Assembly (NCBI RefSeq): GCF_988242995.1
Contig: NZ_OZ547043.1
Length of the DNA: 64,000 nt
Direction: 5' to 3' (one strand)
Part shown: positions 880-41,586 of the stretch, piece by piece
How positions within the stretch are numbered: the stretch's first letter is position 1
How the letters are laid out: each line of letters starts with the position of its first letter
The notes under the pieces: model-generated
Databases searched by the model: none
Told to the model about the DNA's origin: nothing
The model's input: only the letters and a program-made list of their open reading frames with translations
Translations under genes and position numbers: made by a program

Positions 880-3800
880 ATGGACGTCAGTCGCAGACAA
901 TTTTTTAAAATCTGCGCGGGCGGTATGGCTGGAACAACGGTAGCGGCATTGGGCTTTGCCCCGAAGCAAGCACTGGCTCAGGCGCGAAACTATAAATTAT
1001 TACGCGCGAAAGAGATCCGTAACACCTGCACATACTGTTCCGTAGGTTGCGGGCTATTGATGTATAGCCTGGGTGATGGCGCGAAAAACGCCAGAGAAGC
1101 GATTTATCACATTGAAGGTGACCCGGATCATCCGGTAAGCCGTGGTGCGCTGTGCCCGAAAGGGGCCGGTTTGCTGGATTACGTCAACAGCGAAAACCGT
1201 CTGCGCTACCCGGAATATCGTGCGCCAGGTTCTGACAAATGGCAGCGCATTAGCTGGGATGAAGCATTCTCCCGTATTGCGAAGCTGATGAAAGCTGACC
1301 GTGACGCTAACTTTATTGAAAAGAACGAGCAGGGCGTAACGGTAAACCGTTGGCTTTCTACCGGTATGCTGTGTGCCTCCGGTGCCAGCAACGAAACCGG
1401 GATGCTGACTCAAAAATTTGCCCGCTCCCTCGGGATGCTGGCGGTAGACAACCAGGCGCGCGTCTGACACGGACCAACGGTAGCAAGTCTTGCTCCAACA
1501 TTTGGTCGCGGTGCGATGACCAACCACTGGGTGGATATCAAAAACGCTAACGTCGTAATGGTAATGGGCGGTAACGCTGCTGAAGCGCATCCCGTCGGTT
1601 TCCGCTGGGCGATGGAAGCGAAAAACAACAACGATGCAACCTTGATCGTTGTCGATCCCCGTTTTACGCGTACCGCTTCTGTAGCGGATATTTACGCACC
1701 TATTCGTTCCGGTACGGACATTACGTTCCTGTCTGGCGTTTTGCGCTACCTGATCGAAAACAACAAAATCAATGCCGAATACGTTAAGCATTACACCAAT
1801 GCCAGCCTGCTGGTGCGTGATGATTTTGCTTTCGAAGACGGTCTGTTCAGCGGCTACGACGCTGAAAAACGCCAGTACGATAAATCGTCCTGGAACTATC
1901 AGTTCGATGAAAACGGCTATGCGAAACGCGATGAAACACTGACTCATCCGCGCTGTGTGTGGAACTTGCTGAAAGAGCACGTTTCCCGCTACACGCCGGA
2001 CGTCGTTGAAAACATCTGCGGTACGCCAAAAGCAGACTTCCTGAAAGTGTGTGAAGTGCTGGCCTCCACCAGCGCGCCGGATCGCACAACCACCTTCCTG
2101 TACGCGCTGGGCTGGACGCAGCACACCGTGGGTGCGCAGAACATCCGCACCATGGCGATGATCCAATTGCTGCTCGGTAACATGGGTATGGCTGGTGGCG
2201 GCGTGAACGCATTGCGTGGTCACTCCAACATTCAGGGCCTGACCGACTTAGGTCTGCTCTCAACCAGCCTGCCGGGTTATCTGACGCTGCCGTCAGAAAA
2301 ACAGGTTGATTTGCAGTCGTATCTGGAAGCGAATACGCCGAAAGCGACGCTGGCTGATCAGGTGAACTACTGGAGCAACTATCCGAAGTTCTTCGTTAGC
2401 CTGATGAAATCTTTCTACGGTGATGCTGCACAGAAAGAGAACAACTGGGGCTATGACTGGCTGCCGAAGTGGGACCAGACCTACGACGTCATCAAGTATT
2501 TCAACATGATGGATGAAGGCAAAGTCACCGGTTATTTCTGCCAGGGCTTTAACCCGGTTGCGTCCTTCCCGGACAAAAACAAAGTGGTGAGCTGCCTGAG
2601 CAAGCTGAAGTACATGGTGGTTATCGATCCGCTGGTGACTGAAACCTCTACCTTCTGGCAGAACCACGGCGAGTCGAACGATGTCGATCCGGCGTCCATT
2701 CAGACTGAAGTATTCCGTCTGCCTTCGACCTGCTTTGCTGAAGAAGATGGTTCTATTGCTAACTCCGGTCGCTGGTTGCAGTGGCACTGGAAAGGTCAGG
2801 ACGCGCCGGGCGAAGCGCGTAACGACGGCGAAATTCTGGCGGGTATCTACCATCATCTGCGCGAGCTGTACCAGGCCGAAGGTGGTAAAGGCGTAGAACC
2901 GCTGATGAAGATGAGCTGGAACTACAAGCAGCCGCACGAACCGCAATCTGACGAAGTAGCTAAAGAGAACAACGGCTACGCGCTGGAAGATCTCTATGAT
3001 GCCAATGGCGTGCTGATTGCGAAGAAAGGTCAGTTGCTGAGTAGCTTTGCGCATCTGCGTGATGACGGTACAACCGCATCTTCTTGCTGGATCTACACCG
3101 GTAGCTGGACAGAGCAGGGCAACCAGATGGCTAACCGCGATAACTCCGACCCGTCCGGTCTGGGGAATACGCTGGGATGGGCCTGGGCGTGGCCGCTCAA
3201 CCGTCGCGTACTCTACAACCGTGCTTCGGCGGATATCAACGGTAAACCGTGGGATCCGAAACGGATGCTGATCCAGTGGAACGGCAGCAAGTGGACGGGT
3301 AACGATATTCCGGACTTCGGCAATGCCGCGCCAGGTACACCAACCGGACCGTTTATCATGCAGCCGGAAGGGATGGGACGCCTGTTTGCCATCAACAAAA
3401 TGGCGGAAGGTCCGTTCCCGGAACACTACGAGCCAATCGAAACGCCGCTGGGCACTAACCCGCTGCATCCGAACGTGGTGTCTAACCCGGTTGTTCGTCT
3501 GTATGAACAAGACGCGCTGCGGATGGGTAAAAAAGAGCAGTTCCCGTATGTGGGTACGACCTATCGTCTGACCGAGCACTTCCACACCTGGACCAAGCAC
3601 GCGTTGCTCAACGCAATTGCTCAGCCGGAACAGTTTGTGGAAATCAGCGAAACGCTGGCGGCGGCGAAAGGCATTAATAATGGCGATCGTGTCACTGTCT
3701 CAAGCAAGCGTGGCTTTATCCGCGCGGTGGCGGTGGTAACGCGCCGTCTGAAACCGCTGAATGTAAACGGTCAGCAGGTTGAAACGGTGGGTATTCCAAT

Positions 3801-38053: not shown

Positions 38054-40333
38054 TTAATTTGATGGCTCTAATTCAACAGGAATACTTTTATAGCCAGGAA
38101 TGCCACTTAATGGATCGTGGTTATCAAGTGTTAGCATGTGATTCGATTCTGGAAAATAGGTCACCAGTGAGCGGTCAGCCATAGGGTAAATGACCACTTT
38201 TAATCTATCCATGCGGCGTGAGCTTCGCTTACCGTCTGGCGTAAGCGCAATAAGATTAACTCTTTCGCCGTTTTTTACACGGCAAATTTTAGCTTGTTTA
38301 GCACTCATAAAGACCACATCTCGTTGACCGAATACCCCTCGATAGCGATCATCCATACCATAAATCGTCGTGTTGTACTGATCGTGACTGCGTACTGTCG
38401 CCATGACTAGCTTACTGTTAAACGCTGAAGAGGGATCTTCTAACAGCCCTTTACTGGTAATGAAATTAGCCTTACCTGACGGCGTCATCCAGCGCCTTTC
38501 AGCAGCTGCGTTTATCAGGTGAAAACCTCCAGTATGTCGGATGCGCTGGTTATAGTCGGCGAACTCTGGCAGCACAGCTTCAATGTCATTGCGAATGCGA
38601 TCATAATCTTCCACCAGATACTCCCAGGCTACCACGCTCTGGGGTAGTGCCGCCTGCGCGATACCCGCGACCACTGCACACTCTGATTTCAGCATTACAC
38701 CGGCGGGTTTTAACACGCCACGCGAGGCATGAATCATCGACATTGAATCCTCAACGGTTACCGCCTGCGCACCGCTTTTTTGCATGTCAATCTCGCTACG
38801 TCCCAGAACCGGCAGAATATAGCTATGCCGTGCGGTCAGCAGATGAGAGCGGTTAAGCTTAGTGGCTACGTGTACCGTCAGATCTAATTGTGTTAACGGT
38901 ACAGCGCTCGCTTCCCGATCTGGCATTGCCAGTGCAAAGTTGCCCCCCATGCAGATCAATGCTCGAGCCTGCCCCGTACATATTGCTTGCATGCTGGCAA
39001 TTGCAGCATGTCCAGGTGCATGAGGTGGGGTGAAACCATAGCGCTCACCCAGGCGAGCCAGAAACTCTGCAGACGGTTTCTCGGTGATACCGACGGTTCG
39101 GTCGCCCTGTACATTAGAGTGACCTCGTAGTGGGCAGATACCCGCACCAGGCTTGCCAATGTTACCTTTCATCAACAGCAGATTGACCAGTTGCTGTACA
39201 TTCTGGGTACCATGTTCGTGCTGAGTGATCCCCATTCCGTAACAGATAATGGTGCGTTCGGCAGCGGCATATGCATCAGCCAGTTCGGCGATTTGAGTCT
39301 GACTTAGTCCAGAAATACGTTCGATATCTTTCCACTCGGAATTGAGCACGTCACGGCGTAGCTCGTCAAAGCCGACGGTATGCGTTTGAATAAATTCGTC
39401 ATCCAGCAATGAGGGCCGACCTGCGGCGCTTGCAGCATCATCGCGCTCAATTAACAGGCGCATCATCCCCTTGAGCAATGCCATATCGCCACCAATGCGC
39501 ACGTTATAGTAGGCACTGGCCAACTGAGTCTCAGAGTTCGTCAGCATTTCAAACGGGTTTTGCGGTGCGGTAAATCGCTCCAGGCCACGTTCCTGTAGAG
39601 GGTTGATAGCGATCATTTTCGCTCCCCGTTTCACTAAAGCGCGCAACGAAGTCAGCATGCGAGGGTGGTTTGTACCAGGGTTATGCCCAATGCAAATGAC
39701 TAAATCGCATTTCTCAAAGTCTTCCAGCAACACGGTCCCTTTACCCACACCGATACTCGCTGCCAATCCCACACTGGTCGGTTCATGGCACATGTTGGAG
39801 CAGTCGGGAAAGTTATTGCTCCCGTATTCACGGGCAAAAAGCTGATAAAGAAAGGCAGCTTCATTGGAAGTGCGCCCCGAAGTATAGAATTCAACCTGAT
39901 TGGGATCACTATAGCTTTGAAGGCGAGCGCCAATTTCGTCGAAAGCTTGTTGCCAGCTTAATGGCTTGTAACAGTCGCTGACGTCATCATATTTCAAAGG
40001 CTGAGTGAGACGTCCCGCAGCCTCAAGCTCGTGATCTCCCCAGGTAAGTAATGATTGAACCGTATTCTCAGCAAAGAAAGAGGCATTTACCTGCTTATCC
40101 GTGACTTCCCAGGCGATTGCTTTTGCGCCGTTTTCACAAATGTCGAATGACGCACTGTGCTTAGGATCTGGCCATGCACATCCCGGACAGTCAAAGCCCT
40201 CTGGCTTATTCATGTCAAACATGGCAATAACATCCTGGCGTATATCCATCTGCTTACGTACTGCATTCGCTACGGATTTAACAGCACCCCAACCACCGGC
40301 AGCTCCCTGGTAGGATTCAATTTTTTTCTTCAT
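38054..40333 (-). CDS. ydeP: Molybdopterin-dependent oxidoreductase (formate dehydrogenase-like, acid resistance)
   Basis: 759 aa; N-terminal Cys cluster (CPGCAWPDP), molybdopterin oxidoreductase fold. Confidence 0.88.
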
Positions 40334-40581
40334 CTGCTTATCCTGTGTGGAAATGAATTATTAGGATTTGTAATAGCGATGATGCAAAGTATATACAAAG
40401 GGTTTATCGTCAACATGAATATATAAGAGTAGGGGACTACTCTCTTACTATTTTTACTCTATTATCGTTAAATAATAGAGTAGTATAAATACGATAAGTT
40501 AAGCATCATCTCTCATAGGGTTTAAATTAACATAATTCTCAATATAAAAAATAAGACTCTGGCTTCAATTGTGCGCGGATT

Positions 40582-40599
40582 TTCTTACAAGTGTAGGAT
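40582..40599 (-). promoter_or_regulatory. EvgA-box-like inverted repeat upstream of ydeP
   Basis: TTCTTACAAGTGTAGGAT matches the EvgA box pattern; about 250 nt upstream of the ydeP ATG. Confidence 0.55.
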
Positions 40600-40671
40600 A
40601 ATAGCCTTCACAAAATAATTATCCGCGCAATTTTCATGAATGGAGCGCATAGACTAATGTCAAAATCACAA

Positions 40672-41586
40672 TTATTCATAGATAAAAGTGACACCAATGA
40701 CTGACTGGACGGCTCCGGCTGCAACCTTGTTTCCTGTTTGTCCATAGGTTGCGCTTAAACCCAGAGGTACTTTGCTTTTATTTACTGTCCCCAGGGAGAC
40801 ATTTTCTCCTGTTGCCAGTGTTTTTCCATTACGCATCAGAGAGACACCCACGCCCGATGCTTTTGTTGCATCTGGTGCTGTGTTAGCAAACACTTGTCGG
40901 GCACTGTCAGTGGTGGCACCCGAAAGATAAAATGAGAGCTTTTGTTCGCTAGAGCAATATACACCAAGGGGTATTTCTGCGCTTCCAGGAAAGTCCGGGA
41001 GATTCACGGTGACATTACGACTATCAACGGTGCAACCGCCTGTTGGCATAACAACACTGTTATTTGAAATAATATTCCACGTAAAATTACGCGGATTTCC
41101 GCTTCCTAACGTGGCAATTTTATACATATGAATACGGGCAATAACTTCCCCTGCTTTTATGACAACTCCACCAGCCGCTCCGACTGGGGTAATATAGAGT
41201 TTTAACGGTAATGGCATCGGTGTCTTATCACCAATATCCAATACGTTGGTATTTGTCGTCAACGGGAAAGGGTAGGTCACATTATTCCAGTACAGTGATC
41301 CTTTATATGACTGTAGGGAGCCTGCGAAAGCTGATCCTTGTACCAGGTTTATATGATCAGTGTCGTACCAGCCGCCGTAATCATTCCAGCAACTTATATG
41401 CTGAGACAAGTCTACAACCAGATTCTGGCCCGGTTGTATTACAGGATCGAGATTAACATAAACAGAGGTTGTACCTGCTCCAATACTTGACCCGCCATCG
41501 ACATTACAACTGAAGGCAAAAACTTTGCCTGCCATTAATAGAAGATAAATACCGAACAGGACCTTTATACTGAATGTTTTACCCAT
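40672..41586 (-). CDS. ydeQ: Fimbrial tip adhesin, FimH-like two-domain
   Basis: 304 aa with signal peptide; last gene of the chaperone-usher operon; C-terminal pilin domain motif. Confidence 0.8.

Follow-up and report, generated by a model that had tools for sequence, protein, structure and literature searches.

Among acid-resistance genes, ydeP is one of those that EvgA induces most strongly, and it is in wide use as a reporter of EvgS/EvgA activity. EvgA-activated genes carry an 18-bp inverted repeat, the EvgA box, in their upstream regions. Another class of inverted-repeat operators, the NarL/NarP 7-2-7 sites (consensus TACYYMT-N2-AKRRGTA), serves regulators of the NarL/FixJ family, to which EvgA also belongs. 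Inverted repeats that function in RNA include Rho-independent terminators and attenuators, in which a U/A-rich run comes after a hairpin and several segments can be mutually complementary, as well as 5' stem-loop stabilisers of the ompA type, which have discrete hairpins in the leader, a helix near the 5' end and a single-stranded A/U-rich segment between the hairpins. Finally, quasi-palindromes are hotspots for template switching, a process known from the work of Ripley and of Lovett and co-workers; through it, both arms of a palindrome can change together even when selection does not act on the RNA.

Here we describe a cluster of TACTCT/AGAGTA hexamers in a 64,000-nt stretch of DNA (hereafter the window). 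The 338 bp at 40334-40671, which separate the ydeP coding sequence from the end of ydeQ at 40672, are 100% identical to E. coli FDAARGOS_536 and 93.8% identical to K-12 MG1655, in which they correspond to the region between ydeQ and ydeP; the window is E. coli DNA. An earlier note on this DNA had reported at least four copies of one hexamer in alternating orientation and an 11-bp perfect inverted repeat, placed them between an EvgA-like box and the ydeP start, and suggested that they might be either the operator of a second regulator or a structured 5' UTR. Its description proved accurate in each of these respects: four of the 22 hexamer copies in the window fall within 57 bp (40426-40482), the arms of the inverted repeat (40455-40465 and 40472-40482) are 100% complementary across a 6-nt spacer, a second dyad, AGAGTAG-GGGA-CTACTCT, occupies 40426-40443, and the cluster lies between the EvgA box and the ydeP ATG (Table 1). 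The window holds no further TACTCT/AGAGTA cluster. As to the two readings, that of a structured 5' UTR is favoured by the position of the cluster, a stable predicted fold and variation of the G.U type, whereas that of operator half-sites is weakened by a hexamer that is not conserved, the lack of a consensus match and a dyad confined to a single locus.

Like the EvgA box, the cluster consists of inverted repeats, and the two share an intergenic region and a regulatory unit; the cluster differs, however, in its sequence and spacers (6 and 4 nt, as opposed to 2) and lies about 100 bp downstream, within the presumed transcript. With regard to NarL/NarP sites, TACTCT is similar to the heptamer over its first six bases, and YdeP is a molybdoenzyme; however, the best 7-2-7 match has mismatches at 4 of 14 positions (equalled by 288 of 300 shuffles), the spacings are wrong, and most E. 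coli have TAATCT, without the TAC. The ompA-type stabilisers are similar in that the ydeP leader, at about 180 nt, is predicted to contain discrete hairpins, a helix near the 5' end (P1, from +4) and a single-stranded A/U-rich segment between hairpins. They differ in that the ydeP 5' helix is a long-range closing stem rather than a local hairpin, in that there is no sequence similarity, and in that the ydeP element is restricted to Escherichia. We propose that the hexamers are the arms of two hairpins, HP1 and HP2, in a P1-closed leader of the EvgA-activated ydeP mRNA, and that this leader would act post-transcriptionally; we put the probability of this reading at roughly 0.55.

Table 1. Features of the ydeP leader region and its surroundings, in window coordinates
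Feature	Sequence	Position	Strand	Remarks
ydeP coding sequence		38054-40333	-	759 aa; start codon 40333-40331
P1, 3' strand	GCAUCAUC-GC	40375-40385	-	closes a domain of ~135 nt containing HP1 and HP2
Hexamer copies	TACTCT/AGAGTA	40426-31, 40438-43, 40455-60, 40477-82	-, +, +, -	
HP2 (predicted)	(G)AGAGUAG-UCCC-CUACUCU(U)	40425-40444	-	7 Watson-Crick pairs and G.U (40444/40425); holds hexamers 40438-43 and 40426-31; -9.4 kcal/mol, probability 0.989
Linker	AAAAAUAGUAAG, running into HP2	40445-40454	-	A-rich, predicted single-stranded, between HP1 and HP2
HP1 (predicted)	UACUCUAUUAU-UUAACG-AUAAUAGAGUA	40455-40482	-	11 Watson-Crick pairs and a U.G closing pair, loop UAAC/UUAACG; holds hexamers 40477-82 and 40455-60; -12.1 kcal/mol, mean base-pair probability 0.985
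P1, 5' strand	AG-GAUGAUGC	40503-40513	-	3-4 nt after the putative transcription start; from inverted repeat, MFE and consensus structure
Putative transcription start	A	40516	-	-178 in K-12 and -183 in the window allele, by alignment
Extended -10-like element	TGTTAATTT	40524-40532	-	upstream of the putative start; read by eye
Sigma-70 promoter-like site	TTGAAG-16-TATATT	40541-40568	-	promoter scan; start would fall near 40534
EvgA box	TTCTTACAAGTGTAGGAT	40582-40599		1 mismatch to the consensus; matched by 0 of 300 shuffles

Position of the cluster and predicted fold of the leader

The EvgA box (consensus TTCYTACANNTGTARGAA) is kept in K-12 and in L003, a divergent species representative, and the best match to this consensus outside the box has 7 mismatches. 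The hexamers of the sigma-70 promoter-like site are identical to those given for ydeP by Shimada et al. (2014, PMC3946193), who also flag H-NS at the promoter region. Eighteen bases further down, the extended -10-like element TGTTAATTT, which is conserved as TGCTAATTT in L003, may represent a promoter element of ydeP. Gorelik et al. (2024, PMC11210196) used RNA from -178 to +10 as the ydeP 5' leader in gel shifts with CsrA, which did not bind it; the window leader has 5 extra bases relative to K-12 and is thus about 183 rather than 178 nt long. A further scan hit, TTTATA-17-GATAAT, would be an internal promoter overlapping HP1; it was dropped as unconserved, because the K-12 deletion described below removes its -35. 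The repeats, whose position relative to the ydeP promoters had been raised in the earlier note, are situated downstream of both candidate promoters as well as of the EvgA box. Since the cluster is found about 100 bp downstream of these signals and 93-149 nt before the ATG, and falls within the -178 to +10 RNA of Gorelik et al., it would be part of the transcribed leader, at about +35 to +91 of the transcript (about +35 to +110 with either candidate promoter), a placement that is well supported by these signals.

In the mRNA sense (minus strand), the four hexamers are predicted to form two adjacent hairpins, HP1 and HP2, nested inside helix P1, in which GAUGAUGC (40511-40504) pairs with GCAUCAUC (40385-40378) along with two further pairs (probability 0.996). 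The fold of the whole leader has a predicted energy of -41.8 kcal/mol (z = -4.2) and that of an 81-nt core -22.3 kcal/mol (z = -4.8, with z = -5.4 for the K-12 core), and none of 200 shuffles equalled the stability of leader or core. In the window allele as well as in the K-12 allele, HP1, HP2 and P1 pair with probabilities of 0.98-1.0, and all three helices are included in the RNAalifold consensus of 17 alleles. The sequence AAAAAUAGUAAGAGA (40440-40454, minus strand), which comprises the linker, consists of five consecutive A-R-N triplets; such triplets are associated with binding to the Hfq distal face, and the linker, which differs from L003 at 1 of 10 positions, could conceivably be an Hfq or RNase site.

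Two further helices were considered and rejected. Helix P2, UUAUCGU/ACGAUAA (40494-40488 with 40412-40406), is broken in L003, L086 and L080 and is missing from the alignment consensus. A hairpin formed by UUCAUUUCC...GGA...GAUGAA (40329-40357, minus strand), which would occlude the Shine-Dalgarno GGA and AUG of ydeP, is weak, at -4.2 kcal/mol and z = -1.2. It is nearly invariant, and allele L168 has U-A in place of its U.G pair.

Of 5000 dinucleotide-preserving shuffles of the 338-bp intergenic region, 8 placed at least four non-overlapping copies of any one hexamer, in either orientation, within 60 nt; of 2000 such shuffles, 6 contained an inverted repeat with perfect arms of 11 bp or more and a loop of 3-10 nt. 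The hexamer cluster and dyad are real and non-random, but they are an ordinary kind of feature. Rfam covariance models, run over 40250-40750 at a permissive threshold, gave best scores of 10-19 bits (gathering thresholds of 35-80, E = 1.6-6.7), from unrelated eukaryotic and viral families. The leader hairpins are new in that they are absent from Rfam and no description of them was found in the searchable literature, although hairpins of this kind are very common.

Variation and constraint among leader alleles

Leader alleles were compared in an alignment (A3) of 17 distinct sequences, most of which came from a metagenome scan and the rest from K-12, the window and L003; three additional alleles from complete genomes were compared with the alignment and left outside it. 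A second, protein-based route to alleles recovered a window-like allele only. One metagenome-assembled genome labelled 'Candidatus Nanosynbacter sp.' (L002, JARKOR010000108.1) encodes a YdeP that is 100% identical to that of the window and carries a K-12-type leader; the contig almost certainly got into the bin as an E. coli contaminant. Leader homologues were found in Escherichia only. For the ydeP homologues of Edwardsiella (84-86%), Yersinia rohdei (67%) and one enterobacterium (74%), the upstream DNA was unrelated and mostly short, and the L003 leader used as a query against E. coli genomes gave no match. Since related leaders are absent outside Escherichia, a deep covariation analysis is impossible.

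Among 5310 complete E. coli chromosome records, the window allele (a 76-nt segment, at least 99% identical) is present in 1012, or about 19%, and a K-12-like allele, with the HP1 hexamers TAATCT/AGATTA (UAAUCU...AGAUUA in RNA), in 3905. The band of 90-95% identity comprises about 377 records, and in both of those sampled HP1 is ancestral-like, reading CAUUCU...AGAUUA and including a U.U mismatch, as it also does in the outgroup-like alleles L080 and L003. Two of the four hexamer copies are therefore altered in about 80% of E. coli genomes, on both arms and with pairing kept (C-G to A-U). While the HP2 half-sites are conserved among alleles, the HP1 half-site is TACTCT, TAATCT or CATTCT. The hexamer is thus not the conserved unit, and the description as four copies of one hexamer is true for the allele or lineage of this strain only. 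Because the HP1 hexamer differs among alleles and its ancestral-like form is that of the outgroups, both the perfect dyad and the pattern of four copies are derived.

The hairpins persist across alleles while the hexamer sequence changes. Pair 40-63, which is C-G in the window, is A-U where the allele is K-12-like and U.U where it is ancestral-like; it is the sole pair changed on both sides, with U.U intermediates. The one-sided changes in HP1 (A47G, A55G, A62G, A60G and A44G), as well as A82G and the variants at 76-95 in HP2, lead to G.U pairs or better. When distinct non-Watson-Crick states in the HP1 core and HP2 are counted in the mRNA sense, 7 are G.U and 1 is A.C (one-sided sign test, ~0.035), and 99-100% of cells are paired when the alignment is read as minus-sense RNA, compared with 87-91% when plus-sense RNA, or DNA with strict Watson-Crick pairing, is assumed. 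Pairing is kept among alleles mainly by G.U wobbles, which are possible in the mRNA-sense strand only. Loops vary as well, with four different changes in HP2 and three in HP1. HP1 is found in all alleles, weakly in one divergent allele, with predicted energies of -2.8 to -12.1 kcal/mol, a range which indicates that a fixed stability is not required. Covariation measures were no higher than in shuffled controls because the alleles, which are 94% identical, are too similar. In addition, P1 and most of HP2 never vary, and their invariance therefore says nothing on pairing.

As a neutral yardstick we used the 4-fold synonymous sites of ydeP, at which the window differs from K-12 by 8.3%, from L080 by 16.5% and from L003 by 38%. 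Relative to L003, the HP2 stems differ at 1 of 16 positions (about 6 expected) and the P1 strands at 0 of 31 (0 of 11 for the 3' strand), while the spacer beside the P1 3' strand (columns 96-134) differs at 17 of 39, close to the neutral level. The P1 5' strand is invariant as well; among the metagenome alleles the invariance of columns 6-22 is partly due to the use of these columns as the search anchor, whereas L003 was retrieved independently of that sequence. P1 in L003 is longer by 3 pairs. Conservation at a neutral divergence of 38% shows that at least HP2 and P1 are constrained, and these two elements are thus under purifying constraint.

Origin of the palindrome and alternative explanations

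The dyad of the window was made by C38U, U40C and U63G, and its perfect 11-bp palindrome is, on comparison of the alleles, a derived form in which two or three substitutions would have lengthened an older stem of 8-9 bp. Relative to the ancestral-like allele, that of K-12 has a deletion of 5 nt (ATAC + 1) just 5' of HP1 and an adjacent T-to-A change; as a result of the two, the 5' and 3' arms are exactly complementary and the stem reaches 14 bp (window 40482-40491; L001 ~3183-3190). This deletion and substitution look like a single quasi-palindrome template-switch mutation, and the window allele is an independent perfection of the same HP1 stem. Both the lineage-specific conversion of an imperfect to a perfect repeat and the complex change in K-12, which copying of the opposite arm explains, are as seen at template-switch hotspots. 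Between the window and K-12, HP1 differs at 4 of 22 stem positions and by the 5-nt indel, as compared with 8.3% at 4-fold sites; since HP1 changes faster than synonymous sites within E. coli, part of the apparent compensation may be mutational rather than selected.

These data bear on the possibility that the repeats are largely neutral quasi-palindromes, in which template switching perfects AT-rich inverted repeats and the dyad and hexamer are by-products without a specific function. The rate of HP1 evolution, at or above neutral within E. coli, fits this explanation, as do the single templated event suggested for the K-12 arm, the similarly derived perfection of an 8-9-bp stem in the window and the differences in HP1 stability between alleles. 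It is a serious alternative for HP1. For the element as a whole we nevertheless consider it unlikely, given that the HP2 stems and P1 strands are far more conserved than synonymous sites, that the wobble changes oppose perfection of the palindrome yet keep RNA pairing, and that the cluster and dyad are rare in shuffles. Template switching is a mechanism of origin rather than a function; it accounts for how the dyad arose but not for the retention of the hairpins in all lineages, and it leaves the wobble changes and the conservation of HP2 and P1 unexplained.

Under a DNA operator model, the dyads would bind a dimeric factor or nucleate H-NS downstream of the promoter and thus silence or modulate ydeP independently of EvgA, by roadblock or bridging. 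A dyad operator would be expected to show what is seen here, namely two inverted repeats that share a half-site and have conserved arms and variable spacers; furthermore, the region is 22-29% GC, H-NS is flagged at the ydeP promoter region (PMC3946193), ydeP is essentially silent without activated EvgA, and the conservation of P1 and HP2 could equally mean protein contacts. We consider this model improbable, however, as the HP1 half-sites are TAATCT/AGATTA or CATTCT/AGATTA in about 80% of genomes, such that complementarity is kept but the consensus is not, and as 7 of the 8 non-Watson-Crick states are G.U in the mRNA sense, which degrades a DNA palindrome. In addition, consensus strings for NarL/NarP 7-2-7, Fur, H-NS, the GAD box and RcsB match the cluster no better than they match shuffles. 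A search of 5308 genomes for the same dyad, a check proposed along with the operator reading, found it at a median of 1 and a maximum of 2 places per genome, and without recurrence at other promoters there is no regulon; a comparison with interspersed repeats (REP/BIME, MITE or IS ends) likewise found a single-copy locus, always between ydeQ and ydeP. Moreover, the passage of PMC7174508 that cites Burton et al. (2010) states that the ydeP promoter is not under complex GadE, GadW, GadX or RpoS regulation.

A transcription attenuator, in which HP2, or HP1 and HP2, followed by UUAUAUAUU would end or pause transcription, with alternative pairing of the hexamers as a switch, is very improbable. The locus shares with known terminators and attenuators a hairpin followed by a U/A-rich tract and several mutually complementary segments, and the hexamers permit an alternative 12-nt pairing that is 92% complementary. 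However, a terminator scan found no site, and no U-tract that passed, in the mRNA sense, its sites being on the opposite (plus) strand only; HP1 and HP2 together are favoured over the alternative pairing by 12 kcal/mol, which makes a switch unlikely, and that pairing needs the lineage-specific hexamers. ydeP is also missing from the 3'-end tables of PMC7815308, although it is barely expressed under the conditions used there. Lastly, the notion that the cluster is a pairing site for the sRNA RyhB is hardly credible: while the passage of PMC3071730 that cites Oglesby et al. (2005) reports RyhB-dependent repression of ydeP in Shigella flexneri, and the linker between the hairpins is A-rich and ARN-like, complementarity between the leader and RyhB (sequence confirmed by Rfam, 83 bits) is no better than chance (equalled by 271 and 163 of 300 shuffles), and the best local duplex is at coding +27 to +52, outside the cluster, and is equalled by 21 of 200 shuffles.

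Possible roles of the leader and neighbouring features

If the hexamers are arms of hairpins in a P1-closed ydeP leader, the structured leader would act after transcription starts. By analogy with ompA, a base-paired 5' end and compact hairpins would most likely shield the ydeP mRNA from 5'-end-dependent decay by RNase E and set translation efficiency or ribosome access, and the exposed A-rich linker may offer a contact site for a factor. A more specific proposal, which we advance very tentatively and regard as doubtful, is that P1, HP1, HP2 and the linker form an Escherichia-specific cis-regulatory RNA domain that gates ydeP post-transcriptionally. If so, the signal would be acid, ions, a protein or an sRNA partner, the domain would constitute a second layer of control beneath EvgA, and selection on this control would account for HP1 having been lengthened independently in the two major E. 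coli lineages.

An effect of the leader on mRNA stability or translation would have practical consequences. ydeP'-lacZ translational fusions would report more than EvgA activity, and differences between B2-type and K-12-type HP1 would do likewise. The leader could also be the entry point of the reported RyhB/Fur effects and of indirect YdeO effects. Otherwise, the cluster represents an ordinary pair of leader hairpins and a warning that its four apparent half-sites are a lineage-specific accident of stem sequence rather than a conserved operator.

Several other features of the region were observed. On the plus strand, HP2 followed by CTTACTATTTTTAC (40426-40449) scored as terminator-like; no plus-strand gene ends there, and the structure could stop antisense transcription leaving ydeP. 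A 9-bp perfect G+C-rich inverted repeat, TGCGCGGAT / ATCCGCGCA (40572-40580 and 40621-40629), brackets the EvgA box with a 40-nt spacer. As minus-sense RNA of the ydeQ 3' region it has a predicted energy of -21 kcal/mol (z = -4.15), and L003 carries a C-to-T change in it that would be G.U in the minus sense; the repeat may be an RNA structure at the ydeQ 3' end or may serve, as DNA, to present the EvgA site. A mini-ORF of six codons (AUG AGA GAU GAU GCU UAA; 40498-40515, minus strand) begins 1 nt past the putative transcription start and overlaps the P1 5' strand; lacking a Shine-Dalgarno sequence, it probably has no significance. The sequence TTAGGATTT (40361-40369, plus strand), located 28-36 nt upstream of the ydeP ATG and invariant in all alleles, equals the first nine bases of the GAD box (GadE site), and the full 20-mer GAD box is unmatched there.

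With regard to ydeP itself, many database entries named YdeP (P0005-P0016 and others) are fusions of 800-1200 aa with FimH, usher, AraC-type or sulfatase domains, which are likely to be frameshift or assembly artefacts or pseudogene read-throughs with ydeQ, ydeT, ydeO or ydeN. A table of the MazF regulon contains the entry 'ydeP, 13' (PMC5001579), and an ACA at 40346-40348 (minus strand), 13-15 nt before the ydeP AUG, fits this entry and would yield a near-leaderless mRNA.
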